DNA of 64,000 nucleotides, taken from IMG/VR virus record IMGVR_UViG_3300007541_000015; one strand, written 5' to 3'. Shown here piece after piece: positions 1,115 to 61,197 of the stretch. The notes beneath the pieces were generated by a model that did not search any database, had not been told where the DNA came from, and saw nothing but the letters and a program-made list of their open reading frames with translations. The number at the start of each line of letters is the position of its first letter. Position 1 is the first letter of the stretch. A program made the translations under genes and the position numbers. The DNA is from an uncultured virus (IMG/VR IMGVR_UViG_3300007541_000015) (Duplodnaviria > Heunggongvirae > Uroviricota > Caudoviricetes).

Positions 1115-1116
1115 AT

Positions 1117-4163: not shown

Positions 4164-4208
4164 AATTACCACAAGGGACTTACGGATTAACCTGCCCTTG
4201 TGCCTAAT

Positions 4209-25782: not shown

Positions 25783-25799
25783 CTATTTATGTGATTTAC

Positions 25800-28289
25800 A
25801 TGCCTCTTCTTCTTGATAAAGAAGAATCTCCATCTGAGGAGATTATTCGCTTATTTGAGAAGACTCGCGTAGCGTATCTTTCTGCAAGGGAAGACCCTAA
25901 AGAATACGGTGGACGTTGGCGAAAAGCCATCGAAGATTTACGCTCTGCCTATTCTAAGACAAATGCACTAGGAAGTATTCTTGAAGACTATATTAATAAG
26001 AACGAGTTAGAAAATAAAGAGGCAGCAGACCCGACCTCTCAAATTGCTAGCCGTGTATATGAAAGTGTCAAAACTATGAGACTTTCTGCTGATGAGTCTA
26101 ATGACCCCTTTGTTAGAAAATATAAGGATAAGGTTTTAGAAGTATTACTCGGAGAACCTGAAACGATGGCTAAGTTTGTCCATTATGCTTTAAGAGATTC
26201 TAAAAACGCGCTTCCTGAGAAAGTCTGGAAGATTAAAGACATGGAACCGGACGAAATTACCGCAGGCTTCCACGGCCTTGACTTGGAAGCAGACGACATA
26301 GCCCTGTATATCATCGAGCAATACGGTGATGGAAAGGACTCAAAGAAGGTCGAAGCCGCAGTTGATGAAGCATTTGATATGTTAGAGATGTTTTATCTCT
26401 CACAACACAAAGAAGAGGAATGGGAAGATGTTCAAGAAATTGAGAAAGCAGAAACTAAGTCTGAAGAAGAAAAGGCTCAGTCTGATTTCTTGATTCCAAA
26501 TAAACCAATGTATAGAATTTTTGACATTGAAGATTTGAATGAACTCCGTGGCTTTAGTGGAGATTGGATTATTCAAGAAAAATACGATGGTATGAGAATT
26601 CAAATTCATAAGATTGATAACAACATCAAAATTTATTCATATAATGAAAAGGATATTACTTCAAAATGCAAAGAGCAAGTTGAAGAAATGAAGCAAAAGC
26701 AATACGGGGACTGTATTCTTGATGCTGAACTTATTCTTTTTGATGGTGACGAACCTCTCCATAGAGCAGATACAATCGCTCACATATTTAAGGGTAAATA
26801 TCCCGATGCTAAATTGAGAGCGCACGTATTTGATATTATGCGTCATGAATCCCGCGACCTTGTTGAAGAACCATTGGAAGATAGAATGACTATTTTATTC
26901 AATAACTATTCTGCTAACTCTTCTGAAGCAGTAGCATTCCCTTCAAAGAAAGATACTAGAACGGCTGACAATATTAAAGATATTGAAGCCTATGCAAAGG
27001 AAATTATGGAAATGCCAACATCTGAAGGTGTAGTCATTAAGGATGCAACTTCAACATATTACATTGGAACACGTAAGAATCCAAAGTGGATTAAGTGGAA
27101 AAAATTCGTGGACCTTGACCTCATCGTTCTTGATGTGAAGAAGACCAACAGCAATCTATACTCTTACACCCTCGGAGCAGGGCCAACAGAAGGTGAAGGG
27201 AAATACTTCAAGGAAATAGACGGTCGGACCTATATGGACGTAGGGAAGGCTCTTAACACGAAAATTTCTGCTAAGTTAGGTGACATTATCCGCGTGAAAG
27301 TGGACGAAGTGAAGCCCTCCGATGATAGATTTACCGTTTATTCAGCAAAGGTAATTGAAATTCCTGAAGTTGAAGAACCAGACAAGGTTATTACTTTAGA
27401 GATGTTATCGAAAGACACCAAGAAGTCTTTGAATTATGACGTGTCTGCATTTGAAAAAGGAATCAAGGTTACTGATTTCATTCATGGAGAGGCTACACTT
27501 ATCATTAAATCTTCTATGAACGGATTCAATATTTATGGATTTGAAGAAGACAACTTAATGTCTAAAAATGCTATTGCTGATTTAGATATGTGGAAGTCTC
27601 AAGCAGAAGAAATTATGAAAACAAAACAAGGAGTTTTGGCTACTGCAATTATCAACTACCTTCAAGAGAATGGACCAAAGACAATTAAACAATTACATAA
27701 CTTCTTGAAGAAAACGGTATCTGAATATGAAGATATCTTAGAAAGTAAGGAAACTAAATTACTTGATTGGGCGCAGGAAAGAGATGGCATTTCCTATGAC
27801 CGTGAAGAAAAGAAAATCTATGCTGAAGGAGATAAGGTAGTCAAAGCAGACTACAAAACTCCTGAAGAATATTTAGATGGTAAGTTCAAAATTTACTTAA
27901 GAGATGATGATAATCTAGATTTAAGTATTAAATTGGGTGATGAGAATTTGATTTGGTATATTGAATTAGATTCTGAAGATGCGCTATTTGATTTATTTGG
28001 GAAGGCAGGAAAATATCCTGCTATGGTTGCTAAGACAAAGAGCCGAGGTAAGGTAATTGATTACGGCGATATCAAGTTAGGCATTCAAAGAGATGGCTAT
28101 CACGAATATTTCTTAAAAGGAAATAAATTTGAAACTAAGATGCATCTAAGAGTTGTTCCTGTTAAGGGCAAAAAGATGTGGCTTGCATGGACAGGCTTTA
28201 AGCAGACACCGGCTGATAAAGAAGGTGACGAAGGCAAATGGAACATTTACGAGGACAGGTATAATTCCTTAACCATTCCTGAGGCTTGA
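25800..28289 (+). CDS. lig: ATP-dependent DNA ligase with N- and C-terminal extensions
   Basis: Motif I EKYDGMR, III ILDAEL, IIIa VFDI, IV EGVVIK, V WIKWK, OB domain. Confidence 0.92.
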   Translation: MPLLLDKEESPSEEIIRLFEKTRVAYLSAREDPKEYGGRWRKAIEDLRSAYSKTNALGSILEDYINKNELENKEAADPTSQIASRVYESVKTMRLSADESNDPFVRKYKDKVLEVLLGEPETMAKFVHYALRDSKNALPEKVWKIKDMEPDEITAGFHGLDLEADDIALYIIEQYGDGKDSKKVEAAVDEAFDMLEMFYLSQHKEEEWEDVQEIEKAETKSEEEKAQSDFLIPNKPMYRIFDIEDLNELRGFSGDWIIQEKYDGMRIQIHKIDNNIKIYSYNEKDITSKCKEQVEEMKQKQYGDCILDAELILFDGDEPLHRADTIAHIFKGKYPDAKLRAHVFDIMRHESRDLVEEPLEDRMTILFNNYSANSSEAVAFPSKKDTRTADNIKDIEAYAKEIMEMPTSEGVVIKDATSTYYIGTRKNPKWIKWKKFVDLDLIVLDVKKTNSNLYSYTLGAGPTEGEGKYFKEIDGRTYMDVGKALNTKISAKLGDIIRVKVDEVKPSDDRFTVYSAKVIEIPEVEEPDKVITLEMLSKDTKKSLNYDVSAFEKGIKVTDFIHGEATLIIKSSMNGFNIYGFEEDNLMSKNAIADLDMWKSQAEEIMKTKQGVLATAIINYLQENGPKTIKQLHNFLKKTVSEYEDILESKETKLLDWAQERDGISYDREEKKIYAEGDKVVKADYKTPEEYLDGKFKIYLRDDDNLDLSIKLGDENLIWYIELDSEDALFDLFGKAGKYPAMVAKTKSRGKVIDYGDIKLGIQRDGYHEYFLKGNKFETKMHLRVVPVKGKKMWLAWTGFKQTPADKEGDEGKWNIYEDRYNSLTIPEA

Positions 28290-31854: not shown

Positions 31855-32244
31855 TTGGCTGCATTAAATCAAGATACCCGACTCGTCATGACTATTCTTT
31901 TCTGTGGTTGTCTTAGTGGAGCAAATGTCTTCTTTTATGCAAAGTATGGAATTGATTTTCCATATACCCATCTTGCTCATTCAATTCTTTTTGGATTAGT
32001 TACTGTTGGAGCAATTATGATTATGAAGGCAGTTGGGGATTTATTCCTAAACGAGCGCATCGAGTTGTTCTTGCTTGATAGGAAGATTGAAACCTATTGG
32101 GCTAGAATGAGTCGAGATGAAACCCAAAGAAAGAAACTCATTGAGACTTCCAAACAGTTTAAGAATGATTTTAACCGAACACCTCAATTTTCTTCTTATC
32201 AGGAAAATTCAGTTGGTTCTTCATTTTTAGAGGCACTACAATGA
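31855..32244 (+). CDS. Membrane protein (2 predicted TM helices)
   Basis: Two hydrophobic stretches; TTG start with GAGGTG RBS. Confidence 0.75.
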   Translation: MAALNQDTRLVMTILFCGCLSGANVFFYAKYGIDFPYTHLAHSILFGLVTVGAIMIMKAVGDLFLNERIELFLLDRKIETYWARMSRDETQRKKLIETSKQFKNDFNRTPQFSSYQENSVGSSFLEALQ

Positions 32245-32256
32245 AGGTGATGGAGT

Positions 32257-32472
32257 TTGCTCAATGATTTGTTGGGTATGAATGACATTGACTTTATGTA
32301 TAATCAAAGCCGAGCGCATTCAGCCGACTTGATGTTTCTTAAACTAAAGGCTTGGTTTTACGGAATTACATTTTCTGTAGCCACTTTGTTACTAGGAAAC
32401 ATTGGTGGAGTATTCGGTATAAATATTATGGGATGGATTATTGATAAAATTTTTGGAATTTTTGGTCATTAA
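32257..32472 (+). CDS. Small membrane protein
   Basis: Hydrophobic, Gly-rich C-terminal half. Confidence 0.7.
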   Translation: MLNDLLGMNDIDFMYNQSRAHSADLMFLKLKAWFYGITFSVATLLLGNIGGVFGINIMGWIIDKIFGIFGH

Positions 32473-32487
32473 GGGGGTTTTAGATGA

Positions 32488-33150
32488 ATGTCACTACTGA
32501 CAGGTTTTGCTGTAATTGTGACGGAGGCTGTTTATGCCTTTTACAAAAGAGTCCACGCAATCAATTTTGGAGTCTATGGAGCAACAATGGTTGGAAAGAC
32601 AACACTACATCATCAATTGAGAACTCGTGGTGAAGTCCCTCAAATTAATCATAGAACTGTAGGAAGAGGAAAGGCATCAAGAAAATACGTTAAACTAGAT
32701 GGTGAAGGGCATACTGTTAAAACCTCAGATATCGGTGGAGAAGCAATTTATTGGAAAGAATGGATTAACGATATAAGAGAAAGAGATGTTAAATATATTA
32801 TTTTTATGATTGACCACAGGCATTTAGATAATGATTCTAATATGGACCACCAAGTTGCATGGAAGTTTTTAGTTGATGAATTAACCAAACAATTCTGGCC
32901 GGATGGAAAAAAGAAGAAAGAAACAGATTACCCTATTGCAGTTGGTCTTTGGGCAAACAAATATGACATTTGGGGAGAAAAATACCCAACAAAAGATTCA
33001 ATAGAGAAACATAAAATTTTTGAACCGTTTAAATATGGAATGAGAAAACTTAACGAGAGAGGTATTCCTTGTTACAGATATATTATTTCTGCAAAGTCTG
33101 ACCCTGAAATGGTTTATAGAGGCATATTCACAATGATAAAAGATTACTGA
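32488..33150 (+). CDS. Ras-superfamily (Arf/Sar1-like) small GTPase
   Basis: G1 GATMVGKT, G2 RTVG, G3 DIGG, G4 NKYD, G5 SAK; hydrophobic N-terminal helix. Confidence 0.85.
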   Translation: MSLLTGFAVIVTEAVYAFYKRVHAINFGVYGATMVGKTTLHHQLRTRGEVPQINHRTVGRGKASRKYVKLDGEGHTVKTSDIGGEAIYWKEWINDIRERDVKYIIFMIDHRHLDNDSNMDHQVAWKFLVDELTKQFWPDGKKKKETDYPIAVGLWANKYDIWGEKYPTKDSIEKHKIFEPFKYGMRKLNERGIPCYRYIISAKSDPEMVYRGIFTMIKDY

Positions 33151-33160
33151 GGTGTTAAAG

Positions 33161-33394
33161 ATGTGGTTTGATATACTTAAAAACAAAATGACGAGAGAAG
33201 AGTTTGAAAAAAGAGGAAGGCAGATATTAGAAATGCCTTTTGGTAATGAAACAGATAAAAGAGATGCTCAGAGTCTTTTTAATGGAATGTTAAAAGATGG
33301 AGAAAGTAGATTCTTATCATATGCAAATGCTATAAGAACTATGGAAGACTTTAGGGATGGAAAGATTTTAGATTTAGCACCGGCAGATAGGTGA
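33161..33394 (+). CDS. Hypothetical protein, MWFDILK motif
   Basis: GAGGTG RBS; shared motif. Confidence 0.7.
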   Translation: MWFDILKNKMTREEFEKRGRQILEMPFGNETDKRDAQSLFNGMLKDGESRFLSYANAIRTMEDFRDGKILDLAPADR

Positions 33395-33398
33395 TAAA

Positions 33399-34049
33399 AT
33401 GTATCAACAACCACTATTAGTGGGAATGCATTCTGCTCAGGCTTCTTTAGCCTTTCTTCCGAAGTTACCAATGTATCGTTCTCCCGGTCAAATTGAAGAA
33501 TATAAATATGACCAAATAAAACCTAAGAAGCAACTCAAAGAAATCAGAAAGGTTTTACTTCCTGAGAAAAAGAAGTTCTTTATCTTCCGCTTTGGAAAGA
33601 AGTTTAACCTAAAAGACCGTTGTGTTGTTTGTGGTGTTAATCATTCTTGGGATGCAGGAGATTACTTAAGACCGCCTATTCCCCTAGATGAAGTCCATAA
33701 AGGACGCCCTCTTCGTGGAACATACTGCCCTAAACACGCCGCTATCTTCATGCAAATGGAAATGCTAGAACAACAGATTCTTGCTGAAGAACACGGTCTT
33801 GAGTTTAGAGGATTTAAACCAAAGATGCCTTCTATTGTTAATAAAGGCCCACTTAAAACCTTAACACAAGAAGACGTTATTTCACTTACCGCCGCCGGAT
33901 GGTTGATAAAGGCTCCCTCCCCTGTCGAATCTGAGGAAGGGAAGCAGACCGCTATGAGCCTTTTAGCGGAAATGAATGCCTCAATGCAAAAACTTAACTT
34001 TTTGGTAAATAATGGAGTTGAACTCGATGGGACAGAAAGACGTAATTAG
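33399..34049 (+). CDS. Zn-binding hypothetical protein
   Basis: CVVC...YCPKH. Confidence 0.7.
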   Translation: MYQQPLLVGMHSAQASLAFLPKLPMYRSPGQIEEYKYDQIKPKKQLKEIRKVLLPEKKKFFIFRFGKKFNLKDRCVVCGVNHSWDAGDYLRPPIPLDEVHKGRPLRGTYCPKHAAIFMQMEMLEQQILAEEHGLEFRGFKPKMPSIVNKGPLKTLTQEDVISLTAAGWLIKAPSPVESEEGKQTAMSLLAEMNASMQKLNFLVNNGVELDGTERRN

Positions 34050-34659
34050 TGCGATTACAACGCAAAGCGATACGACCTTTAAAACGGTCAATAACTTGCT
34101 TTCACTTCAAGACAATCATGTTGAAGAATTCTTTCAATATCATGGAAAGCAATTCCTTGAAATGCTTGAAAAGATGATGGAAGACGTAACTGAAAGAGTC
34201 GTTAGTCAAATGCTTGCAAAGTTAGCATTTACTGTTGAAGCAAATAAAATCACAATTGACCCTGATGCTATGCGTGATTTTGAGAAAATAACCAAAGAAA
34301 ACATTGACTTGGATATTGAGAGGATTTTACAATCTGCTTTGAATACAGAAGTGATAAACCAGCGCAAACTTGCGAAGCAACAATACCTTGAATCTCAAGG
34401 CTTTAGTGGTGCTTCTCCATCTGCCGGTGCTTTTGGTGGTGCTATGATGGGTGGTGCTGTTGCCGGTGGCTATCAAATGCAGGGAGCCATGCAAAACGGT
34501 TCAGGATATCCCGTCCCACCTTCGGGAACAGACGGATATGGGCGTCCTTATTGGATTGACCCAAATAACGGACAAATGAGTTATGAACCACCACAAAGCG
34601 GGTTACATTTGATGCAAGTTGCTCAGAAAGGAGCGGCTTGGGCAAAATGGCTAATGTGA
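34027..34659 (+). CDS. Hypothetical protein with Gly/Pro-rich C-terminal region
   Basis: Helical N-terminus, low-complexity GAM-rich linker, amphipathic C-terminus. Confidence 0.7.
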   Translation: MGQKDVISAITTQSDTTFKTVNNLLSLQDNHVEEFFQYHGKQFLEMLEKMMEDVTERVVSQMLAKLAFTVEANKITIDPDAMRDFEKITKENIDLDIERILQSALNTEVINQRKLAKQQYLESQGFSGASPSAGAFGGAMMGGAVAGGYQMQGAMQNGSGYPVPPSGTDGYGRPYWIDPNNGQMSYEPPQSGLHLMQVAQKGAAWAKWLM

Positions 34660-34660
34660 G

Positions 34661-35959
34661 GTGGTATTATTGAAATACTTCAGTCGTTCCGGCCAAAAGC
34701 GACCCGACGATACTGATAGTCTTCAGTTTCGAGAGTTGATTCTTGGTGCTATTGTTTCTGAAGTATTATCTTCAAAGAGCGAAGATTACTCTAATAACCT
34801 CTATAATATTGATGACATTTTTGACCTTACCGAAAATAAGGAAAGTCAAGAGTTTGACGAAGAAGGATTTAAGGCTGAAGCAAAAAGGGTAATTAAAGAA
34901 ATAATGGATGAACCATTGGGTTCTATCTTACCTAATTTGACTTTTCAGAAAGAATACTCCGAGTTTAAAAACTTAACTTTGGCTGAAATTACTGACAGGG
35001 AAAGAGTAAAGGAATTACTTAAAACCAAAAGAGGAGAACGACCTCCTGTTATGGAACCAAGTGAAGACTTTATTTCTCTTGATTATATCAAGAAAAACTT
35101 CGTTAGTGTCGAGGGAATAGATAAAACTAAAAATGATGAGGGTAAAATAGTAAAGGAAGAATACACCGAATATATTTGGGATGAAGCAAAATCACAAAAA
35201 AAGGATGACTACCACCCAGAATCAAAAATAGGCTGGCTTAAAAGGCATCCAGAGTATTCTGCATATTTAACTACTTCTGAATCTTCTAGTCCTGAAGTGA
35301 CTATTGGAATGGGTGCAATTAAAAATAAATCAGATAAGGAAAAACTATTTGATAGAATTAATTCTCTTAAAGAAAAGGAAGACAGTTCTGAATTTAACCA
35401 AATGGTTGATGAAATTGTAGCATACGAACCAAAGGAAGAAGAATCTTCTAAAGATGTTGATAGCGATGATTCATTAGTTGATGATGAAAAGGAAGCCTTC
35501 AAACTTAAGATTCATGAAAAATATCCTAATGAATATATGAAATTATATGACCGAAATTATTTTTATAAAGACAAACAATTATTTGAGCATTTATATAACA
35601 CTTCGCCTTTAGAAGAAGATGAAATTTCGGAAGAAAGGTCCGGCGACCCTGAATTAGTTAAAGAAGCCCATGAAGACCCATTTTCTTACATTAGAAGAAT
35701 TTGGCCGACTGAATGGAATTTATACATAATCAAGTTGAAGTTATACGACAACAAACAGAAATTTAGCATCAAGATTGATAAAACCCATGAGTTGTTCCAA
35801 ACGGGAATTAGAAGAGGAACAGGTTCAGGTGAAGGCTTCAAAACAACCGGAAGCAGAAGGCTCTCACCAATAGAACAAGAATACGACCTCAAACATCTAA
35901 GAAACTTCATTGAAGAAGTTGTCGAAGAATACCGTGATTTGAAGGAATTATTGGGGTGA
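34661..35959 (+). CDS. Acidic hypothetical protein (432 aa)
   Basis: Long ORF; start uncertain. Confidence 0.65.
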   Translation: MVLLKYFSRSGQKRPDDTDSLQFRELILGAIVSEVLSSKSEDYSNNLYNIDDIFDLTENKESQEFDEEGFKAEAKRVIKEIMDEPLGSILPNLTFQKEYSEFKNLTLAEITDRERVKELLKTKRGERPPVMEPSEDFISLDYIKKNFVSVEGIDKTKNDEGKIVKEEYTEYIWDEAKSQKKDDYHPESKIGWLKRHPEYSAYLTTSESSSPEVTIGMGAIKNKSDKEKLFDRINSLKEKEDSSEFNQMVDEIVAYEPKEEESSKDVDSDDSLVDDEKEAFKLKIHEKYPNEYMKLYDRNYFYKDKQLFEHLYNTSPLEEDEISEERSGDPELVKEAHEDPFSYIRRIWPTEWNLYIIKLKLYDNKQKFSIKIDKTHELFQTGIRRGTGSGEGFKTTGSRRLSPIEQEYDLKHLRNFIEEVVEEYRDLKELLG

Positions 35960-40073: not shown

Positions 40074-40285
40074 TTCGGCAAGCATTCAAGGGGAAGGTCA
40101 ATGACCCCGAAATTGCTTCCAAATTAGCCGTTTACTATTTGTCGAAAGGATTAGGAATTAGCCCTCTAGAAGTTTATAAAATGCCTGTTTCTATGGTAAA
40201 GGATTTCTTAGCAATTCATAACGAATCGGAAAGATTGCAAGCAGAAGAAATTGAAAAGGTAAAAAGGAGTGCTAAGAATGGCTGA
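40061..40285 (+). CDS. -1 frameshift extension of tail chaperone (gpGT-like)
   Basis: A-AAA-AAC at 40061-40067; -1 frame open for about 72 codons (RVIRQAFKGK...LGISPLEVYKMP...) to TGA 40285. Confidence 0.75.
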   Translation, partial: KKRVIRQAFKGKVNDPEIASKLAVYYLSKGLGISPLEVYKMPVSMVKDFLAIHNESERLQAEEIEKVKRSAKNG

Positions 40286-41906
40286 AGACTTAGCAAGCGT
40301 TACTTCTGACCTCAAGCAACTGATGAGTGTAACCATTTCTGCACAATCGGCATTTGGGGGCTTAGGTAAAGCACTTTCAAGTATTGCTAATGCTTCTTCT
40401 AAATCATCTAAGAATTGGACTATTTTTAGTCGTCTTGTTTCAGGAACTCCTATTTGGGCTATTCAAAACAAAGTAAGAGCATACGTTGATATTCTAGCGC
40501 AAGTTGATGAAAAGCAGAAGTCCAATACTGATAGCAGGAAAGCATATAATAAAGCAATCATTAATGAAATGAAATCATATGATGCAATTAAGGCCCAAAT
40601 GATTGGTGTTTCTACACAATTTGAAAATTATGCTCAGGCTCAAAATTCCTTCGCATCAATGTTTGGTAGTCATGCTGCTACCCTTAGTCACCTTTCTTTA
40701 GAAACTAGAGAATTACTTGAAGCAACTGATTCCTATACTTTAGCAATTAAGGCGGGATATACAGAGTTTGAGGCATATTCTAAAGCAATGGAAGAAGTTA
40801 ATCAACAGTATACTAACCTAGAGAAAAATGCAATAAAGGCACAAAAGACATTAGAGTATGAAAGGAAAATGCAAACAGCGCAAGGAAGAAAGGAAATTAG
40901 AGATGAGGAAAGAAAGCAACTTTCTGAATCTAATATGAACAAACTAAATAAATTTGGTGAAAAAACTTCAGATTTATTAGAAAAAATCTTTCGTCAGAAC
41001 GGACAAACTTGGGAAGTTAGAAAAAAGTTTGCAAAGGGGCAGGAAAAATACGATAAATTTGCAACTAGATTCCAAACAAAAATGCTAGGATTTGCTAATT
41101 TCACTAAAGGCGTCTTCCAATTACTTCAAAAGTATATCATTATGGGTATGTTTGTTGCTATTGGTATTATTGCTGCTATTGGGGTAATTAAACAAATGAG
41201 TGAACAATTAGATTTTAGTGATATAATGGAAAGAATAGGAGGAATTATTGCATTAATTGCTTCAGGCATTGGTGACATAGTTGGATTATTTAGCGCATTG
41301 ATGAGCGGAGATTTGGAAGCGGCTATGGACTATTTGCGTAGCATTTTAGAATCGGTAAATGACATATTAATAGAAACTCTTAAAATTGCTTTATTGGTTG
41401 GCTTTGAATTGCTTGTGGCAACTATTAAATCAATACCAGAACTACTTTCAAATCCAATATATACTGACGCTCTTTATGATATACTTTGGAGAGCATTGGT
41501 AGCATATTCAGTAATAATTGGTGTTAAAATGGTTGCTGTTGCACTATTACAGGTTGCTGCATTATACGCACTACCTGTTATGCTCGGAATCGTTATAGTT
41601 GCTGGATTGGTAGGAGTATTTAAGAGGGTATTTGGAAAAAGGGAAACCGGAGGTATTGTTCGAGGAAACGAATCAATGACCTTAGTTGGAGAAAGAGGCC
41701 CTGAGTTGGTTTCGCTACCAACAGGTTCAAAGGTATATACCAACAACCAAACTAGCAAAATGACAGGTGGTGTAACTAATAACTTCAACATCACAATCCA
41801 CGCCAAGGACACATCTGATGCTGAACTGCGAAGAATTGCTGAAAAACTTGGCGGCATGATTAGCAGCAAAATTAACAGAAGAAATTCTTCAAGCACTATG
41901 AGGTGA
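40278..41906 (+). CDS. Tape measure protein
   Basis: Helical Ala/Gly-rich, hydrophobic middle, C-terminal GG.V...LVGERGPELV motif typical of TMPs. Confidence 0.85.
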   Translation: MAEDLASVTSDLKQLMSVTISAQSAFGGLGKALSSIANASSKSSKNWTIFSRLVSGTPIWAIQNKVRAYVDILAQVDEKQKSNTDSRKAYNKAIINEMKSYDAIKAQMIGVSTQFENYAQAQNSFASMFGSHAATLSHLSLETRELLEATDSYTLAIKAGYTEFEAYSKAMEEVNQQYTNLEKNAIKAQKTLEYERKMQTAQGRKEIRDEERKQLSESNMNKLNKFGEKTSDLLEKIFRQNGQTWEVRKKFAKGQEKYDKFATRFQTKMLGFANFTKGVFQLLQKYIIMGMFVAIGIIAAIGVIKQMSEQLDFSDIMERIGGIIALIASGIGDIVGLFSALMSGDLEAAMDYLRSILESVNDILIETLKIALLVGFELLVATIKSIPELLSNPIYTDALYDILWRALVAYSVIIGVKMVAVALLQVAALYALPVMLGIVIVAGLVGVFKRVFGKRETGGIVRGNESMTLVGERGPELVSLPTGSKVYTNNQTSKMTGGVTNNFNITIHAKDTSDAELRRIAEKLGGMISSKINRRNSSSTMR

Positions 41907-42534: not shown

Positions 42535-43629
42535 ATGTATGACGTTTTGGTAGGAAAACAGCGTTCTCTTGTTTTTCCTGTTATGTGTAACGCATACGTC
42601 AAAATTGACTACGGTAGCAACGTAGCAACAACAGATTACGGTATTTGGGACCATGAAGGTTCTTTTACTTTTGAAGCAATTGTTACACCTTATGATGTAA
42701 ATGGATATTGCCGATTATCAACAGGTGGTTCACTTCCCGTTATTAGAGATTCAAAGAAAATTATGCCGGGATTTGATTCAAGAATTGCAGGGAATTATCA
42801 AAGCAACAAATATCTAAATATTGGAAATCGCCTTGTTCATAAAATGTGTTTGTTTTATAGCACTTCTTTAAAAATCTATTTAGTGAACAGCACACTACAC
42901 AATGAGAATAAACCTGCTGAATATAAAATTCAAGTTGAAATGACCATTGGTGGAACAACTGAAACCTTTACTAGCGGTGCTGTCATTACTTCTAACTTAG
43001 ACCAACAGTTTGACTATTCTGGTTCAGACCTTTCAGGGTTCAATAAATTAGGAAAACTCCAATATGATAAAATTACTCAAGTGAACGGTGACTTTACCGC
43101 TCCGGTGTCGTCGTTTGATGTGGACTCCGCTTCTCGCCTCCATGCTAACGCTCAGACCGTGTATATACGCGACGGATTCAACTTCGTGCCTGTTGGGACC
43201 ATCTCAGGATTATCGGGCCTCACGGTTAGTCTAACGACGCCATATTCGGAAGGCTTAAGCAACAATACCGACCTGTTTCTTGAGGCTTACCGCGAACCTT
43301 CGTATATCAACTCCTTTTATCACATTGCAGTAACATATTCAAAAACTCTCAATACTATCACTTTATACCTAAATGGTCTTCAAGTATTGCAAGATACACA
43401 TTCTAATTCAGGAACTTTTGCGTTTGACCAAGAAGACTTTTATATCGGGGCCAATAATACCGGCTCAAGGGGAGACAATTCAGCATTAGCAAATGAACAA
43501 TTCATGGGAGAATTACATGAATTGTCTATTTCAAATGTTAAAAAGGATACCTTTCAAAGTTATTCTAACTTGATGCCTAATTTAAACAATGCTCTTCTTT
43601 ATTTGAGATTTGAGGAGGTGGATAACTAA
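42535..43629 (+). CDS. Tail protein with LamG/concanavalin-like domain
   Basis: FTFEAIV...YHIAVTY...LYLNG...FYIG...FMGELHEL. Confidence 0.7.
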   Translation: MYDVLVGKQRSLVFPVMCNAYVKIDYGSNVATTDYGIWDHEGSFTFEAIVTPYDVNGYCRLSTGGSLPVIRDSKKIMPGFDSRIAGNYQSNKYLNIGNRLVHKMCLFYSTSLKIYLVNSTLHNENKPAEYKIQVEMTIGGTTETFTSGAVITSNLDQQFDYSGSDLSGFNKLGKLQYDKITQVNGDFTAPVSSFDVDSASRLHANAQTVYIRDGFNFVPVGTISGLSGLTVSLTTPYSEGLSNNTDLFLEAYREPSYINSFYHIAVTYSKTLNTITLYLNGLQVLQDTHSNSGTFAFDQEDFYIGANNTGSRGDNSALANEQFMGELHELSISNVKKDTFQSYSNLMPNLNNALLYLRFEEVDN

Positions 43630-46600
43630 TGTCAACTCTTAGAGTTTTTAACAAAGGAGAAACTAGCGTTTCTTCTGTATTTAATACAAACTGTCCCACC
43701 AATGCAAAACTCACTACTCAATCAACAGGAACAGGACGATTCTTTACTGTTATTCATTCCGATGATTCTCAAAATGCTACCTTTAGTGAAATTAAGGCAA
43801 GCACCGGATTGCTTACTGAGTATTCAAATCAAGCCAATACAGAAGGCTTCAAAATCCGTTGCTATGATAGTGCAGATGATGTAGGTATTCAATTGAATGG
43901 TTTAGATGCTAACGATTATTACTTTGTTCTTATTCATTCTGATAATGAAAACATGCACCATTTTGCTAGGATTACTGAGTTTTTAACAGAAGATGTTGAT
44001 GGTGATGCATTTGAATTTACTCCAAAATTGGGAAACCAAGTAAATAAAAATGTAAAATTTATGCTATTTAAAGGAACAAATATGAACACGGCGATTGCTG
44101 TATCTTGTGGTCTTAAAGAAGGATTACGAGATAATTTAGTTTGTGCTCGTCCTCTTTTCTATTTCCTTAATGGCTTAGATAAGAGTGGTGAATTAAACCA
44201 TAACACGAAATATTACGCGGCAGTTGGATATACTTCAAGTGGTGCTAGCATTACACCAAACACCTTAACTACCACATTCTTAACAGAGCAAGATTATTCA
44301 AATAAAATCGTAGATTATAGTCTGTATTCACTTAACGTGACCCTAACTGATTTAAACAGAGAGGGAGATATCGCGGCAACTCCGGTTGCACAGGAAACCT
44401 ACGTTCTTCCCTCGGCAGATTATACTGACTATGAAGATGTTTTTTACAACGCCAGAAGAGAAACCTCAGATAATGCTACTGTTACGACATTAAGAGGTCC
44501 GACTCGATACGTTCATTATGATTATTCTCCAGACTATTGTAATCTAATGCAAGGTGTTTTTGAGACTGAAATTGAAGACTCGGTTGAAAGCAGGTCCGGT
44601 TTTGCAGAATCAACTGCAATTGATAATAAAAGGATTTATCCAAAGAAGATTAGTGAAGATGAACCATACCGAATCCGCCACATGGTTCACACAGGAACAA
44701 TTGATGAATGGTTTGAATTACAGGCGGAAGTATCTAATTATATTTCTGCCTTTAGGAGATATATTTTTACTTCTGATTACCCTATTAACGATTTGATTGC
44801 AACTAATGACGTTGTTAAATTAAATGGTAGGTTACTAATCGTTACATCAACAAGTGCTGGTAGCATTGATGTTTCAAATTACAGTAGATTAGAAACAGAA
44901 AGTGAATTTACCAATACCTTTACTAATTTTTCTTTATTGACAGGTAGTTTATATCGTCGTGCTTACAGTCAAAGTAAAGGAACATTACTCACTACTTTCC
45001 CTATCATTGAAAGTCGAGATAGCAAAATATTCATTAGATTTATGTCTAACAACTTCGGATTTATTTACGCTAACGTTAGTGATTCAAATAAAGTTCAACA
45101 GACTTTAACGCTATCTTTTTCAGGTGATTCATACCACGGCGAAATGCTAAAATATGTTTCAGGGAAGTATATCATTTTCATTGAAAGGTTTGATGGGGTG
45201 GTGGAATCCTTTGAGAGTTTTAAAGAAAATGGACAAACAATGGCTACTGTTAAGGGCAGAAACAATTTTAGAAAGTTACTTTCCCCAATTGTTAATACTA
45301 ACAAATTATTCTCTAGAGACATTATTTACAGTTCTAGGTCTTTCTATAATAAACTAACAGATACTACAAAAACTGTTGATACTACCAATTCAATAGTTGG
45401 AAATTCTAAAACCTTCGATGTTTCTTCTAGCGGTTTTTCTTTTGTTTCTGGCGATATTGTTTTTGTTAAGTTTGCAAATAATTCCATCGCTTATGTAGGC
45501 ATTGTTGATTCCTACACATACCCGACAGTAACTCTTGAAGATTACCCTAAGTCGTTAGTTGAAGGAGCATCATCTGTTGGACTTTATGTTGCTAGAGATA
45601 AAAATTATATTTTGAACAAGGCTCTCTCTTCAAACGCAAATCTATCCCAAACTGTTTCTTCCCTTAACGGAGCAGCAGGTAAAGGTATTTATTTTGAAGG
45701 TGGGACTAAATTACAGTCTAATGGTTCTGATGGTGAATCTCTAATTGGTTCTTCTTCTGATGATAATGCTAATGCTTTAGGCTATCCTATCTTTGAACCG
45801 GATGAGATTCTTTCGGATTTAGAATTCCAAACAAAACTTAAAGGAACTAGCACATCGGCTGAAACATTTGATACTGTAAATACTCTTATTGATTTTGAGG
45901 TATTGGGTATTAAAAATGAAGAGACATATTCTATTATTGAGTTGGCTCCATATTTACCTTTGACTTTAGGCCGAGTTGATTATCAATATAGTAATACCAC
46001 AGATTCTTCTTTCAGCAATAGAGGTTCCGTTTCAGCAACTACTAACTCTAAGTATTTTACCTGTTCTACAACAACAGCATTAATTTATAATGAACCATTA
46101 TATGTTGATGGTGTATTTATTGGAAAATTTGTTTATCAGGTGACTAATTCTTCAAATGTTTCTGTTGTCTATATTGATAGAAAGGCTACATTTTCTTCTG
46201 GGCAACTGCAAGTTTTAGAAGATAAACAAGCAACATACGCTGAAAAAGAACATCCAATATATTCTATGTCTTTAGTTAATGGAGCACATTTGCATGGTGG
46301 AAAAGCAATTAGTTTATTACATCCATTTACTATTGATAGTGCAACTAATAATCATTTGACTACTTTTAACCCTGTAACCTTTTTTTCTGGTTCTTCATAT
46401 GAAGAGAATTATAATGTCAAATTTGGTTCTCCATATTATAGAATTATGAATTTAGAGTTTGGTAGAGTTGAAAAATATTCTAGCACAATTGCTGATTGGT
46501 CTGACGATTACGATTTAGATTATTATTCAGAAAATCCTAGTTCTATTAAGTATTATGGTGAAGCCTATCGTTTAAATCCGGGCTTTACGTCTTCAGTTGT

Positions 46601-49600
46601 TGCTACAACAGGGGTAGGAAAAACAGGGACTTCGACGTATAATTATCAATGGTTATTTGAAACTAAAGGTATTTTACCTGCTTCGGGTTCTAGATTCTTT
46701 GATGAAATTTTCTTAGAGCAGAATGGAACACAAGATATTATCTTTAAATCAGATATGAATGGTGTATATTCCCCTTATCGAACAAAAGACTTACTTGAAC
46801 AGTTTGACACAAAGGTATCAAGGATGTTCTTATTTGCTAATACTGATTTAGAGCCATATAGCGGAACAAGAAAAGATAATATCTTTGGAAGAGACTTGAC
46901 AAACTATAGTTTGATTCTCAAAAAGAAAGAAAGACTTACAGAATACACTTCTAACTCTGATATTAATGCATCTAAAACCACTTCACTATCTAATATTGAT
47001 AATGATTATGTAAGTTTGCCAATTTTAGAAAACACGACAATACCCGATGACATTCAATTTGGCCTTATGAGATTAACTGAAGTAGTATATGATTGGCATT
47101 TTAATCAAATTGACCCAGAAAACCTACCCTCCACTAAAAGAATAATGCCAAAAACTCCTTTGTTAGTTCATGATTTTGTTGATAGCGGTGACGATATTTC
47201 TAGCATTTCAGGTAACACTATTACATTAACTGCTACTACAACAGGAACAATATCTAATGGTGATTTTGTTTGTGATGATGAAGGAAACTTTATTGGAACT
47301 GTTAGCGGAACTCCTTCAGGAACAACAGTTACTTTGATTTTAGATGCCAAAAAACAGCCGGGAAAATCAACATATTATAATGGAAGAATTTGGGTTGTTC
47401 AAAATACACAATACACTACATTAACAGGGCATGGACCTAAAAATTCTATTCTTTGGGATGAACCTATTCATATGTTAAAATCATTTGTTTATCAGGATGG
47501 TTGGGGAGGTGCTTCTAGTCAATTTAATCAAGCATATGGCTCAACTTTGTATGGTTTAATTGGTAACTACAAAGCAACAGTTTATCCGATTGATTTGGGT
47601 ATATATTTAGACGGAACATATTCTATTCCGTCTAAGGTTCTTGATTTTTATCAAATTTTAAGTAACTCTTCTGCATATGATATTTATTCATTTGATTATC
47701 AATTACTTCCAATTTTGTTAGAAAAATTTGATGTTGATGATGGGACAGGTAATATCACTAAGGGAATGGTTTTGCCTCCTATTAAGAAAATAGAACAAGA
47801 TATACTAACAGGGACTAAAAAATTAAACATCATATCTATTGGATATAATTATTCTTTGGGTAAAAATCCGGGATTATTTGCATATACAGACAAAGGCTAT
47901 AATGCTAATTCTGAAGTTGAACTCGATGGGACATATTTAGGGTTTAAGCCTAGAATTAGAATTGACACTTCACTATCTTCCCAAACAGAAACTGAAATAA
48001 CAAACAAAGTAGGAAACAGAAGTTTCTGGAAATATGAATTAGAGGTATCAAGATGGAGTGGAGGATTTGATTACAGTAATTATATCTTACAATTTATAAA
48101 TTCATTAGATGGATGTTATTTAGTTTCCGAGAAGGCCCAATATACTTTAGAGGAATGGTCTGGAGCAGGACAAGAAACACCTGCCTATAAGGCATTAGAT
48201 AATGTATCTTTAAATGATTCAATTCCAGAAACTATTGCTTATGTCGTTTCTCATGAAGTTAAAACGAATGATACCACTCTAAAACATGTTATCATTACTG
48301 ATAAGCAATTAACTGATGATTACTTTAGGGTTATGCAACCAAACCATACCTGTATGTATGAATTTACTCCTGAGATTAAACTAAATGAAATGAGTTCTAA
48401 ATATACCAAGGTAAACGGAGAAGAAAAAACCTATTCAAATATCAAGGGTTTCAATGTAGCAAGTAGTGGACAAGATAGATACATTTCTTCTTCAACCTCC
48501 ACATTTACTGCAAGTCAGCAATTATACAATAGTGGTGGAGCAGAAGCAGCAATGTCTATGTATGTGGCAGTTGATTTGAATAACAAATCTTCTAGTGAAT
48601 CACATATCGTTTATAGAAATGCTGCTAATTTAGATGACCTTTTACCCGATAGTTCAAATATCATTTATATGTCAGATGGAGAAACTAATAAAAAAACAGA
48701 ATTAACAATATCCGAACATTTTGTAAATTCAAGCACTACAACTAAAAAACTTCAGTTCGGTGAAAAGACAAAATTATTAGGTATTGTTTCAATTACACAA
48801 CCATTTGAAATGATTGTTCCTAAGGATATTTCAGGTGATTACTCACGCGCTATGATTGGCGCGGGCGTATCAGTAGCAAATGAAGCAACTAATATCATCA
48901 ATGATTTACTCGAAGATAACGGAATTCAATTTGAAATTCCTGATATTGCATACTCTCATTACCTTGCACCTAACTTCCAAGGTATTGATTTGTTCTCGGC
49001 AATCAATTATATTCTAACCAAGAAAGATTACTCTCTCGTTGAAGATTCTGGTGTATTCAAGATTAGAGAAGGAACTGACTCTCTTCTATATTCAGGTGTT
49101 CTGATTTCAGATTACGGTGAATATCAAATCTTCGACTTCAGAAAAGAGAAGTCAACATTTGATAGATACAACGAAATTGTCGTTTATGGAAGAAGCCACA
49201 AAGCCGTAAGAAAGGACTTACGTTCCATTCAAAAGTCTGGAAGAAAAACATTAGAATCCTTCCAAAGAGAATTAAACTCACAACAAGACGTTGACCAAAG
49301 AGCAACAGAATTATTCTTACTTCATAACAGATTGAACGAAAAGATTGTTGTTGAAATTGGACACCAAGGCATTTCTCAGATTCAACCCGGCGATATTATT
49401 GAAGTTGAAATCAGAAGAGAAAACATCCCAAGAAGCCAATACAAGGTTATTCAAGTCACGCACAAACTTACAGGCAATCTCGTTCTCCAACTTGGAAGAT
49501 ACTCCAAGAGGCTAGAAGACCAATTCTCTGAGTTATTACTCAATGCTCAAAGAGTTAATTCAGCAATCAGGGAAACCGCATTTAACGAAAATGTAGTAAA

Positions 49601-49766
49601 TTACGACTTCTTGGAAAACCTTAAGGTCAAGCCCCTTCGTCTGCTGATTAGGAAGCGGTCTTCATCAGGAGGCACTTTGGGTTTCGGTATTACCTTAGGT
49701 TTTGGTTCAACCTTTACAGGATTAGGAACAATTACAGAAACTGAGTTAGAGGATGTGGAATATTGA
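43629..49766 (+). CDS. Very large tail/baseplate hub or central fibre protein (2045 aa)
   Basis: S/T-rich beta protein; C-terminal hub-like region (YNEIVVYG...IQPGDII). Confidence 0.7.
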   Translation: MSTLRVFNKGETSVSSVFNTNCPTNAKLTTQSTGTGRFFTVIHSDDSQNATFSEIKASTGLLTEYSNQANTEGFKIRCYDSADDVGIQLNGLDANDYYFVLIHSDNENMHHFARITEFLTEDVDGDAFEFTPKLGNQVNKNVKFMLFKGTNMNTAIAVSCGLKEGLRDNLVCARPLFYFLNGLDKSGELNHNTKYYAAVGYTSSGASITPNTLTTTFLTEQDYSNKIVDYSLYSLNVTLTDLNREGDIAATPVAQETYVLPSADYTDYEDVFYNARRETSDNATVTTLRGPTRYVHYDYSPDYCNLMQGVFETEIEDSVESRSGFAESTAIDNKRIYPKKISEDEPYRIRHMVHTGTIDEWFELQAEVSNYISAFRRYIFTSDYPINDLIATNDVVKLNGRLLIVTSTSAGSIDVSNYSRLETESEFTNTFTNFSLLTGSLYRRAYSQSKGTLLTTFPIIESRDSKIFIRFMSNNFGFIYANVSDSNKVQQTLTLSFSGDSYHGEMLKYVSGKYIIFIERFDGVVESFESFKENGQTMATVKGRNNFRKLLSPIVNTNKLFSRDIIYSSRSFYNKLTDTTKTVDTTNSIVGNSKTFDVSSSGFSFVSGDIVFVKFANNSIAYVGIVDSYTYPTVTLEDYPKSLVEGASSVGLYVARDKNYILNKALSSNANLSQTVSSLNGAAGKGIYFEGGTKLQSNGSDGESLIGSSSDDNANALGYPIFEPDEILSDLEFQTKLKGTSTSAETFDTVNTLIDFEVLGIKNEETYSIIELAPYLPLTLGRVDYQYSNTTDSSFSNRGSVSATTNSKYFTCSTTTALIYNEPLYVDGVFIGKFVYQVTNSSNVSVVYIDRKATFSSGQLQVLEDKQATYAEKEHPIYSMSLVNGAHLHGGKAISLLHPFTIDSATNNHLTTFNPVTFFSGSSYEENYNVKFGSPYYRIMNLEFGRVEKYSSTIADWSDDYDLDYYSENPSSIKYYGEAYRLNPGFTSSVVATTGVGKTGTSTYNYQWLFETKGILPASGSRFFDEIFLEQNGTQDIIFKSDMNGVYSPYRTKDLLEQFDTKVSRMFLFANTDLEPYSGTRKDNIFGRDLTNYSLILKKKERLTEYTSNSDINASKTTSLSNIDNDYVSLPILENTTIPDDIQFGLMRLTEVVYDWHFNQIDPENLPSTKRIMPKTPLLVHDFVDSGDDISSISGNTITLTATTTGTISNGDFVCDDEGNFIGTVSGTPSGTTVTLILDAKKQPGKSTYYNGRIWVVQNTQYTTLTGHGPKNSILWDEPIHMLKSFVYQDGWGGASSQFNQAYGSTLYGLIGNYKATVYPIDLGIYLDGTYSIPSKVLDFYQILSNSSAYDIYSFDYQLLPILLEKFDVDDGTGNITKGMVLPPIKKIEQDILTGTKKLNIISIGYNYSLGKNPGLFAYTDKGYNANSEVELDGTYLGFKPRIRIDTSLSSQTETEITNKVGNRSFWKYELEVSRWSGGFDYSNYILQFINSLDGCYLVSEKAQYTLEEWSGAGQETPAYKALDNVSLNDSIPETIAYVVSHEVKTNDTTLKHVIITDKQLTDDYFRVMQPNHTCMYEFTPEIKLNEMSSKYTKVNGEEKTYSNIKGFNVASSGQDRYISSSTSTFTASQQLYNSGGAEAAMSMYVAVDLNNKSSSESHIVYRNAANLDDLLPDSSNIIYMSDGETNKKTELTISEHFVNSSTTTKKLQFGEKTKLLGIVSITQPFEMIVPKDISGDYSRAMIGAGVSVANEATNIINDLLEDNGIQFEIPDIAYSHYLAPNFQGIDLFSAINYILTKKDYSLVEDSGVFKIREGTDSLLYSGVLISDYGEYQIFDFRKEKSTFDRYNEIVVYGRSHKAVRKDLRSIQKSGRKTLESFQRELNSQQDVDQRATELFLLHNRLNEKIVVEIGHQGISQIQPGDIIEVEIRRENIPRSQYKVIQVTHKLTGNLVLQLGRYSKRLEDQFSELLLNAQRVNSAIRETAFNENVVNYDFLENLKVKPLRLLIRKRSSSGGTLGFGITLGFGSTFTGLGTITETELEDVEY

Positions 49767-52681: not shown

Positions 52682-52823
52682 TTAGTGTCTGATTAGACCA
52701 AATACCCAAGCAATCACGGCATTCCCATAGTTTCACCTGTCCGGGCGAACCTACATAAAAGGCGATTAGCCGCTTCGCTAATGTCTGTTCTGTGCAAAAC
52801 GGACATTGCTGCTTAAGAGCCAT
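52665..52823 (-). CDS. Small zinc-ribbon protein (52 aa, MALKQQCPFC...WECRDC)
   Basis: Translated by hand; two CxxC. Confidence 0.6.
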   Translation of the reverse strand: MALKQQCPFCTEQTLAKRLIAFYVGSPGQVKLWECRDCLGIWSNQTLRGVEG

Positions 52824-52965
52824 CTTTCTCACGCTGATTTACTAACCTAGCCATATACTGCTCAACAGATTCATCGGTGATATTAGAACCACCAAATGCT
52901 GCAAAGAACAGCAATAAAACAACTAGCATAAATAAAATCAGAAAGAAAATTTCCCAACCTGTCAT
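52813..52965 (-). CDS. Small single-pass membrane protein (50 aa)
   Basis: MTGWEIFFLILFMLVVLLLFFAAFGG...; translated by hand; TGATG overlap with upstream gene. Confidence 0.65.
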   Translation of the reverse strand: MTGWEIFFLILFMLVVLLLFFAAFGGSNITDESVEQYMARLVNQREKDGS

Positions 52966-53567
52966 CACCAATCAACTCCTAAATCAACAAACTCTTCTTT
53001 TTCAATAGAGAAAGCCTTCACTATACCATTTTCTTGCCCATACTTCCAAAGTTCATAGACTAATTGGCTATCCTTTAGGCAGTAATCCACGACCGTATCA
53101 TAGTCCCCTGCCTTCCATAAGGCGGGAGCATCGGCTGAATCCATCATCTTAGACGCATCTAAAGAACACTCGACTAAGTTTTGAAGTCTAAAGCGTTCAC
53201 CGTGACCTTTCAGAAGAATCTTGCTAGTATCAATATACTGTTCTTCTTCTAAGAACTTACGAATGCAGTATATGTCCATAGAATCACGCAGGATAGGTAG
53301 GTCAAACGCCGCGATATTGTGGCCTAATAGCAGGCCACCTGCCTTCTGAAAATCGTCAAGGTCATATTTCAGGTCGCGCAGACTTTTGACGATGTGACCG
53401 CCCTTAGCAAAGGTATTCACGGCCTCATCAACATACGCCGTTCCTGTTGAGCCATCCCAAGTGGTTACGGTTGAAACTTGAAACATATGGGTATTACCAA
53501 AGCCACCGATTTCGTGAGACATATTCTTAGTCTCTAAGTCAATAGCCATTACGTTCATTTCACTCAC
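52965..53567 (-). CDS. DEDDy 3'-5' exonuclease (RNase H-like/DnaQ superfamily)
   Basis: AIDLET, GHNIAAFD, YCLKD motifs. Confidence 0.85.
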   Translation of the reverse strand: MSEMNVMAIDLETKNMSHEIGGFGNTHMFQVSTVTTWDGSTGTAYVDEAVNTFAKGGHIVKSLRDLKYDLDDFQKAGGLLLGHNIAAFDLPILRDSMDIYCIRKFLEEEQYIDTSKILLKGHGERFRLQNLVECSLDASKMMDSADAPALWKAGDYDTVVDYCLKDSQLVYELWKYGQENGIVKAFSIEKEEFVDLGVDW

Positions 53568-59117: not shown

Positions 59118-59332
59118 TTCCACCAACTACCATTTCCATTATAATGCAAGAATTTTGAAGCAGGTGCTTCATGCATTTCTTGGATTTCTCGAATTGCTTC
59201 CCATATAGTTTTGAATCCTTCGATGGCGTTAAGAATATCTTCTCGCTCATCTTCCAATTCATTGATTCTATGAATCGCTTCTTCAAGTCGTTGTTCCAAC
59301 AGATTTATTCTACTTTCATTATCTAGTTTCAT
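59114..59332 (-). CDS. Small coiled-coil protein between polB halves
   Basis: ORF with ATGA overlaps at both ends. Confidence 0.65.
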   Translation of the reverse strand: MKLDNESRINLLEQRLEEAIHRINELEDEREDILNAIEGFKTIWEAIREIQEMHEAPASKFLHYNGNGSWWK

Positions 59333-59532
59333 TCAATTCGCCTCCAAAGTGCTTTTTGTGTTTTAACTACATTCGGGTGTCTGCTAAGAAAAAAAGATAC
59401 CTGTCTTTGATTCTGCACAAACTTTTTCATTATAGGCTTGGACCTTTCCATAAATACATGAGATGAAAATTCCTCACCTACTTTAAATTCACTTTCTAAG
59501 ATATCATTCATTCTTTCTTTTATTGTTATCAT
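59329..59532 (-). CDS. Small wHTH-like protein between polB halves
   Basis: ORF; TAATG overlap with polB N-half. Confidence 0.6.
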   Translation of the reverse strand: MITIKERMNDILESEFKVGEEFSSHVFMERSKPIMKKFVQNQRQVSFFLSRHPNVVKTQKALWRRIE

Positions 59533-61196: not shown

Positions 61197-61197
61197 T

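Follow-up and report, generated by a model that had tools for sequence, protein, structure and literature searches.

What does a tailed virus of archaea do with a small GTPase that is encoded among its virion genes, directly behind two small membrane proteins? The question is raised by a 64,000-nucleotide stretch of DNA from an uncultured virus (IMG/VR record IMGVR_UViG_3300007541_000015), which we refer to as the window, and which is of the magrovirus type, a tailed virus of Poseidoniales archaea. Here we describe a cassette of five genes on its plus strand that encodes, in this order, a protein with two transmembrane (TM) helices (TM1), a small C-terminally anchored TM protein (TM2), the GTPase, a putative zinc-binding protein (Zn protein) and a glycine-rich helical protein (G/P protein). 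An original prediction, made from the letters of the window without database searches, had proposed this locus as a candidate egress or membrane-remodelling module. We found that the GTPase, the Zn protein and the G/P protein are homologous and keep a fixed order in three clades of viruses, down to about 30% GTPase identity, a conclusion that is strongly supported. By analogy with known systems, the cassette may be a GTP-controlled membrane module, most likely one for egress, a tentative reading to which we give a probability of about 0.4.

The GTPase (32488-33150, plus strand; 220 amino acids, aa) was identified on the basis of its motifs, a structural model and its homologues. It consists of a hydrophobic helix (residues 2-22, with K20-R21 at its end) followed by a G domain (residues 24-220). 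All five G motifs that had been claimed for it were found in canonical order, namely G1 GATMVGKT (residues 31-38), G2 RTVG (56-59, with T57 within it), G3 DIGG (81-84), G4 NKYD (157-160) and G5 SAK (201-203), and they are invariant in 22 aligned relatives. Even in a set of 32 family members that extends down to 24% identity, G31, G36, K37, D81, G84, D109, N157 and K158 do not vary. As judged from sequence, the nucleotide-binding site of the GTPase is intact. W92, which lies 11 residues past D81, is at least 90% conserved among the 32 members; a Trp at this distance from the Asp of DxGG is, we presume, typical of Arf, Sar1 and G-alpha. Directly after the DxxG, the window clade has Glu85, and the family as a whole has E, Q, H, A, D or F; we take the same position to be Gln in Arf and His in both Sar1 and SRbeta. 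The GTPase further carries an IDHRHL signature as well as a basic insert ahead of G4. A search for longer, fused forms found none, which is weak evidence.

The N-terminal helix had been described as hydrophobic or amphipathic, of which only the first part stood up. In the window protein it is hydrophobic (mean hydrophobicity <H> 0.86) and weakly amphipathic (hydrophobic moment muH 0.33). A hydrophobic N-terminal helix followed by basic residues was observed in all 32 members, with <H> between 0.66 and 1.10 and muH between 0.07 and 0.38. This part of the GTPase also has the conserved residues G6-F7-A8, E13-A14 and Y19. Residue 2 is Ser, such that the Gly2 for myristoylation is absent. Since the helix is hydrophobic with a low moment, it looks like an anchor, as in SRbeta, and not like the amphipathic switch helix of Arf and Sar1.

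To which group of small GTPases does this protein belong? Four of the six members of a distant group, A4, score above the Pfam Arf cut-off of 22.3 bits (P0172 57.2, P0185 39.5, P0184 36.5 and P0163 27.2 bits), and P0191 of the same group reaches 24.7 bits against the SRPRB (PF09439) cut-off of 25. The window clade and A4 could be aligned with each other using hhalign (99.8%, E 1.1e-27, 183 columns). Over the 32 members, the best E-value for any Pfam family was that for Arf (1.9e-15). An AlphaFold model built on a deeper alignment (pLDDT 91.4, pTM 0.87) superseded a first model made from close relatives (pLDDT 67.1), and in this model the protein has the fold of a Ras-superfamily small GTPase. 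Comparison of the model with known structures using VIA-align gave Arf6 as the top match (Z 18.4, root-mean-square deviation (rmsd) 2.5, 163 aligned residues), followed by Sar1 (Z 17.7) and SRbeta (Z 17.6, rmsd 2.4). Foldseek returned at least 500 matches at E <= 0.001; all those among the matches listed are small GTPases or G-alpha, and among the same matches ARF6 (2a5f_A) has the highest target-normalised TM-score (TMt 0.81, rmsd 3.5). Because the divergent relatives pass the Arf cut-off and the best matches of the model are Arf6, Sar1 and SRbeta, we read the GTPase as a branch of the Arf/Sar1/SRbeta group that is deep and specific to viruses, a placement that is moderately supported.

A number of results pull in the other direction. 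The window GTPase itself falls under every Pfam cut-off, its best scores being those for MMR_HSR1 (17.2 bits) and SRPRB (15.5 bits; cut-off 25), and it has no match to Arf (PF00025) at E <= 0.1. Counted over the 32 members, Pfam matches were to MMR_HSR1 in 21, Roc in 16, Ras in 11, SRPRB in seven and Arf in only six. The structural margin is also small, with a Loki Rag-like GTPase (Z 17.2), mimivirus Rab (17.0) and G-alpha (16.9) all within about 1.5 Z of Arf6, and ranking of the Foldseek matches by E-value puts Rab first. The generic Pfam matches are confined to the P-loop half of the protein and mostly lie under the cut-off. In NCBIfam, the window GTPase matched TIGR00231 (small_GTP) alone, at 18.9 bits against a cut-off of 42.5, and a sequence search of solved structures gave Ras as the best match, at E ~0.17. 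The description "Arf/Sar1-like" of the original prediction is therefore borne out by the DxGG, by the Trp at +11, by the four relatives above the Arf cut-off and by the structural matches, and is not borne out by the Pfam scores of the window protein.

The cassette was then followed across the relatives of the GTPase, of which there are 393 at E <= 0.001 among 543 candidates, one of them named "Poseidoniales virus YSH_150918" (75% identity) and many of them on contigs of ~90 kb. We defined clade 1 as 80 viral loci with 71-100% GTPase identity to the window, clade 2 as 80 loci kept out of 257 viral stretches, with a GTPase that is about 31% identical to that of the window, and clade 3 as four loci. 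In clade 1, every eligible locus carries TM1 (79/79), TM2 (79/79), the Zn protein (70/70) and the G/P protein (63/63, at 68% identity). The median identity within this clade is 73.4% for the GTPase, 69.0% for the major capsid protein (MCP) and 73.3% for the protease; judged by these values, the GTPase matches the capsid protein and the protease in conservation and is under strong purifying selection.

Beyond clade 1, the Zn proteins of clades 1 and 2 were linked by hhalign (96.7%, E 3.5e-10), and an iterated hidden Markov model (HMM) search found this protein in 75 clade-1 loci, 80/80 clade-2 loci and 4/4 clade-3 loci, always at position +1 relative to the GTPase. The G/P protein was recovered in the same manner in 70 clade-1, 37 clade-2 and 4/4 clade-3 loci, always at +2, and its link beyond clade 1 was seen only after iterated searches through clade 3. 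When TM1, TM2 and the G/P protein were aligned by hhalign against position-defined clade-2 alignments, the result was not significant. Upstream of the clade-2 GTPase, the gene at position -2 encodes one or two TM segments in 74/78 loci, and that at position -1 a single TM segment in 58/80 loci, with a median length of 82 aa and a size and build similar to those of TM2. Small TM proteins likewise stand upstream in clade 3, in the two loci whose open reading frame (ORF) maps were examined. The common order in clades 2 and 3 is a 1-/2-TM protein, a small protein of ~75-80 aa whose C-terminal part is hydrophobic, the GTPase, the Zn-family protein and a G/Q/M-rich protein. The original prediction had made its case depend on conservation of the genes together, and what we observe is that the GTPase, Zn and G/P genes are adjacent in three clades with small TM proteins upstream of them.

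The surroundings of the cassette are not the same in all clades. In the window, the order on one strand is terminase, portal, capsid, cassette and tail tube, which agrees with the earlier view of the cassette as part of a virion morphogenesis operon. That view does not extend to clade 2. In G002, a near-complete clade-2 genome, the GTPase gene is located at ~80.1-80.8 kb on the minus strand, with the terminase gene at 67.5-68.9 kb and that of the capsid protein at 56.3-57.4 kb. The cassette is thus separated from the capsid gene by ~23 kb and lies upstream of the terminase at a distance of ~11 kb; G004 shows a similar arrangement. Since their capsid and terminase proteins are 39-48% identical, clades 1 and 2 represent related viruses in which the cassette has been relocated. 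The cassette is a unit of its own that moves relative to the capsid and terminase genes. Downstream of the clade-2 cassette, at +3, we also noticed a small protein of ~85 aa with two TM segments in 50/80 loci (e.g. L083, 9378-9638), followed by a ~236-aa protein with a Cys-rich N-terminus and weak helix-turn-helix (HTH) matches (e.g. L083, 9850-10560), which is possibly a small terminase or a regulator. Two of the GTPase loci, L029 and L057, lie on one IMG/VR contig of 184,733 bp, about twice the usual magrovirus size, with GTPases that are 76% and 73% identical to that of the window; this contig may have been assembled from two viruses, as a chimera or a concatenation.

Is the GTPase family confined to viruses? 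An exhaustive profile search of 1.84 billion representative proteins yielded 74 clusters at E <= 0.001, many of them fragments, and no ordinary cellular Ras, Arf or other small GTPase was present among these 74. A scan of 185,579 species genomes gave one locus, L161 (NZMJ01000024.1), filed as a Maricaulis sp. metagenome-assembled genome (MAG). Its 12.2-kb contig contains TM1, TM2, the GTPase (73% identity), the Zn protein and the G/P protein, and since the whole clade-1 cassette is on it, L161 is most likely a magrovirus fragment that was mis-binned into a bacterial MAG. A tblastn search with the window GTPase and P0134 found 0 matches in 50,697 GenBank phage records, a set that may lack records close to the window. 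The family thus appears to be virus-restricted. Among the more divergent members, no relatives of A4 and P0163 were seen in viral contigs in our scans and none of P0138 were found there, and the scan for A7 gave no relatives in cellular genomes. The Arf-positive P0172 is a singleton on a 1.6-kb contig. A scan of metagenomes with A7 returned 12 loci at 24-31% identity, which are probably ordinary GTPases and were set aside. Some members of the family have been labelled "GTPase SAR1 family protein" by automatic pipelines. The word "GTPase" has 0 occurrences in the main texts and supplements of PMC5434244, PMC11706807 and PMC10160649 (the annotation tables of PMC11706807 being outside this count), and in a literature represented mostly by abstracts we found no paper on a GTPase encoded by a tailed archaeal virus.

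The partners of the GTPase fall into membrane proteins and soluble proteins. TM segments were called where a Kyte-Doolittle 19-mer scored 1.6 or above. The two upstream ORFs exist on the plus strand as had been stated, with two hydrophobic segments in the first and one in the second. TM1 (31855-32244; 129 aa) has two predicted TM helices, which span approximately residues 9-29 and 38-66, and ends in a charged tail; its median identity in clade 1 is 60%, and its many invariant positions include polar residues in or near the TM helices. It has no family in Pfam, PHROGs, NCBIfam or PADLOC. In TM2 (32257-32472; 71 aa), a soluble N-terminal part that is conserved (YNQSRAHSADL) precedes a single TM helix at the C-terminus, in which GxxxG motifs overlap (GNIGGVFG). 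Apart from TM1 and TM2, the late operon of the window encodes no small TM protein. Elsewhere in the window, a 52-aa ORF on the minus strand (52813-52971) with a strongly hydrophobic N-terminal segment (Kyte-Doolittle score 2.39) is the sole further small TM candidate. As the original prediction had noted, no holin or endolysin could be recognised; none was detected with Pfam among 51 window ORFs or with PHROGs among 15 of these.

The Zn protein (33399-34049; 216 aa) is basic, with a net charge of +8, and was named for a Cys...Cys...Cys-Pro-x-His site. In 17 sequences from two clades, C75, G79, G102, T108, C110, P111 and H113 are invariant, with a second Cys nearby, and the site reads C75-x2-C78 ... 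C110-P-x-H113, with a spacing of ~31 residues. This Cys3His site is probably a zinc site. We considered an ArfGAP finger, which we take to have the pattern CxxC-x16/17-CxxC together with a catalytic Arg. The Zn protein does not show this pattern, has no invariant Arg and has no ArfGap match at E <= 0.1; R103 is Asp in part of clade 2. The protein has no Pfam match, and profile searches of the PDB gave nothing significant for it or for the G/P protein; a search of a protein atlas likewise gave no usable lead for either. The GTPase had been said to precede the Zn protein, which is correct as to order, and in the window an 80-aa ORF (33152-33394, plus strand) intervenes between them. By conservation counts this variable ORF lies outside the conserved cassette, being present in 2/76 eligible clade-1 loci, and it has no family match in Pfam, PHROGs or NCBIfam.

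The last gene of the cassette encodes an acidic helical protein, defined from its ORF and from alignments as 34012-34659 (215 aa). Judged from its relatives and an Atlas record, its start is most likely at 34027 rather than 34012, giving 210 aa; this is the start that had been proposed earlier, and the predicted G/P-rich region and amphipathic end were also seen. The protein combines a helical core and a stretch rich in G/M/Q/P with a conserved tail, GYPxPPxGxDGYGRPYWID..GQMSYEPP..QKGAAWAKWLM, the end of which (QKGAAWAKWLM) is amphipathic. Clade 1 strictly conserves the WW-like GRPYWID...SYEPP motif, which clade 2 lacks. Pfam WW matched below its cut-off in 3/13 G/P members (E 0.029-0.095), and the window protein scored 13.2 bits against a cut-off of 26.9. 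The only PHROG match of the entire cassette is that of the G/P protein to phrog_14074 (E 0.0037). In 1/13 members there was a match to the translocation domain of clostridial neurotoxin (E 0.001; 18.8 bits, the cut-off being 25), which was put down to chance helical similarity, and a match to Phasin_2 was judged in the same way. PADLOC defence models matched 0/10 proteins scanned at E <= 0.01. Directly after the cassette lies a 432-aa, highly acidic Ser/Asp/Glu-rich protein (34661-35959), which is hypervariable, being detected in 3/57 eligible clade-1 loci, and both genes that flank it are conserved.

How does this set of proteins compare with systems already described? The GTPase has in common with Arf, Sar1 and SRbeta the G-domain fold, the DxGG with Trp at +11 and the N-terminal helix, through which we infer membrane binding; it differs from them in being virus-encoded and in lacking known guanine nucleotide exchange factor (GEF), GTPase-activating protein (GAP) or coat partners. 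Compared with Arf, it has no Gly2 and its helix is of low moment, nearer to the TM anchor of SRbeta. With SRbeta it shares the anchor-like helix and the match at Z 17.6, whereas the SRPRB score is under the cut-off and no SRX-type partner was identified.

A likeness of another kind is offered by haloarchaea. PMC10927574 describes Haloferax ArvA as a small GTPase that has a hydrophobic N-terminal helix, ArvB as SepF-like and ArvC as a Zn-ribbon protein with a proposed GAP role; the three act in membrane deformation, and their knockouts alter vesicle output. ArvABC (OapABC) thus likewise combines a GTPase, a Zn-binding protein and a third small protein, also in the euryarchaeal world, the likeness to ArvA being one by description only. 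In the viral cassette, unlike in ArvABC, the Zn protein comes directly after the GTPase and two TM proteins are added. The link to ArvA drawn in the original prediction holds as an analogy and not at the level of domains: the ArvB/ArvC domains, OapB (PF09846) and OapC (PF09845), were found in 0/4 magrovirus records, and the Haloferax volcanii controls were detected.

TM1 can be compared with class II holins, which are likewise small, with two TM helices and a charged C-terminal tail, and are encoded with late genes. It has this build, no match to a holin family and no endolysin among the scanned ORFs, and it differs from typical holins in its strong sequence conservation and in having no endolysin adjacent to it. 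We know of no described holin system that is coupled to a GTPase. Small GTPases borne by viruses do exist, since giant viruses have one in mimivirus Rab (PDB 5xc5), which matches our model at Z 17.0. Arf-like GTPases also occur in a region of an Asgard genome that resembles a mobile genetic element (MGE), according to PMC11529989. Both of these are close copies of cellular Rab and Arf, whereas the magrovirus family is isolated from cellular GTPases, and it is found in a tailed virus of Euryarchaeota together with conserved partner genes of its own. We class the cassette as a putative membrane module built on a small GTPase, whose partners and host type are new and whose family is viral and isolated.

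Putting these observations together, it would seem reasonable to propose that the N-terminal helix fixes the GTPase to the host membrane at its cytoplasmic face, where the protein is possibly in a specific complex with TM1 and TM2. Such a complex is suggested by the conserved polar residues of TM1, by the GxxxG motifs of TM2 and by the conserved anchor residues of the GTPase. The protein would cycle between GTP and GDP states and in its active form might recruit or release the two soluble partners, the Zn protein serving as regulator or effector. Through these partners it could control the action of the TM proteins on the membrane, and the host envelope would be disrupted or remodelled at a set time to let the virions out. 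Egress leads among the possible roles because TM1 and TM2 are the only small late TM proteins, because no other lysis genes could be recognised, and because the players in egress of tailed archaeal viruses are uncharacterised; PMC10791045 calls those in envelope disruption completely uncharacterised. A stronger form of the proposal is that the cassette is the missing egress machine of these viruses, in which lysis would be set by a virus-specific, membrane-anchored Arf-like GTPase and not by a holin clock. The Zn and G-rich proteins would then set the state of the switch, and the TM proteins would oligomerise and open the host membrane. We regard this stronger form as doubtful.

Several considerations count against an egress role. 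As no holin, endolysin or other lysis family was detected, the case for egress is one of exclusion and analogy. That the cassette proteins bind GTP, associate with the membrane and bind one another is a prediction. In several clades the N-terminal helix lies under the TM threshold, with Kyte-Doolittle 19-mer maxima of 0.2-1.3. A GAP role for the Zn protein has no support in its sequence, since no arginine is invariant, and the TM proteins are conserved across clades in position and build only, as no sequence link extends beyond clade 1. Expression of the cassette is weakly indicated: in RNA library X23, the contigs, which derive from relatives at 85-95%, fall for the most part within the protease and capsid genes; one lies in TM1 (31996-32228) and another spans the end of the G/P gene (34537-34745), and DNA carry-over is possible. 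The GTPase gene is not covered, which has no bearing on its transcription, since the contigs are those of relatives. Three DNA runs from other studies contain near-identical pieces of the cassette region.

The placement of the window cassette among virion genes is equally compatible with a role in assembly, in which the GTPase and its partners would act at the membrane, without breaching it, as a tether or timer for capsid assembly, DNA packaging or the joining of head and tail. The cassette lies between the MCP gene (29511) and the tail tube gene (38001) on the strand of the structural genes, its GTPase is conserved like the MCP, and the clade-2 cassette stands a few kb upstream of a Zn-finger/HTH protein and also upstream of the terminase. 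We nevertheless think an assembly role unlikely; the position of the cassette relative to the head genes differs between clades, no PHROG structural family matched above noise, the sole match being that to phrog_14074, and to our knowledge no tailed-virus assembly pathway involves a small GTPase or small TM proteins. The same location between capsid and tail genes would suit proteins that travel inside the virion. TM1, TM2 and the soluble partners might be packaged and afterwards form or control a conduit for DNA, with the GTPase acting in the host cytoplasm, and small TM proteins within a structural operon are, we believe, typical of phage ejection proteins. The chances of this seem slim, given that the window already encodes a tape-measure-like protein with hydrophobic segments (40269-41906), that the clade-2 cassette is away from capsid and tail genes, and that we know of no small GTPase among ejection proteins.

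A GTPase of this type could also act on the host membrane for purposes apart from release, such as a block to superinfection, an alteration of vesicles that mimics or opposes ArvA, or a compartment for replication or assembly. The Haloferax ArvA operon, with its GTPase bearing an N-terminal helix and its Zn-ribbon protein, drives vesicle formation (PMC10927574), the logic of GTPase, Zn protein and third protein is alike in the two systems, and membrane anchoring of the viral GTPase is likely. Opposed to this are the 0/4 count for OapC and OapB, the location of the window cassette with late and not early genes, and the fact that tailed viruses acquire no envelope, and we rate such a role as distinctly unlikely. 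A soluble regulatory GTPase without any membrane role, for example in host translation or signalling, with the TM genes as unrelated neighbours, would fit with MMR_HSR1, the family of ribosome-binding GTPases, being the most-matched Pfam family (21/32) and with the weak helix of several clades. It is nonetheless very improbable, considering that the Pfam matches concern the generic P-loop half and are mostly below cut-off, that 32/32 members have the hydrophobic N-terminal helix and that TM proteins precede the GTPase in three clades in spite of rearranged surroundings. Control of egress by a GTP switch is the reading that we prefer.

The occurrence of Arf-like, probably membrane-associated GTPases with dedicated partners in viruses of Euryarchaeota is relevant to where small-GTPase membrane systems arose and how they spread. 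If GTPase-timed lysis is true, it would be the first such lysis system in any prokaryotic virus, and would place Arf-type membrane control outside eukaryotes and Asgard archaea. The hosts of magroviruses are uncultured, and the parts of the cassette can be expressed and assayed without host culture. PMC5434244 ranks magroviruses third in surface-ocean abundance, after SAR11 phages and cyanophages.

The remaining features of the window conform to a tailed virus. Pfam and PHROGs scans identified, all on the plus strand, a terminase (16065), a portal (20067), a prohead protease (28327), an HK97-type capsid protein, i.e. the MCP (29511), and a tail tube (38001). Within this structural block, between portal and prohead protease, is an 832-aa protein (25791-28289, plus strand) whose residues 254-437 form an ATP-dependent DNA ligase domain (E 5.5e-31). 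The minus strand holds a replication block with a split family-B DNA polymerase, encoded by two ORFs (58230-59126 and 59532-61205) with a gap of ~400 bp. Split polymerase genes mark magrovirus group B1 according to Philosof et al. (PMC5434244). The two ORFs scanned at positions 1-4000 (1853-2422 and 3474-4190) have no Pfam family; the GC content of this region is 0.47-0.50, compared with ~0.32-0.44 in the remaining window, and the shift could mark the end of the genome, inserted foreign DNA or a join made during assembly. A 2045-aa ORF (43629-49766) without a Pfam family at E <= 0.001, situated downstream of the genes for the tail tube and the tape-measure-like protein, may encode a tail fibre or host-recognition protein.

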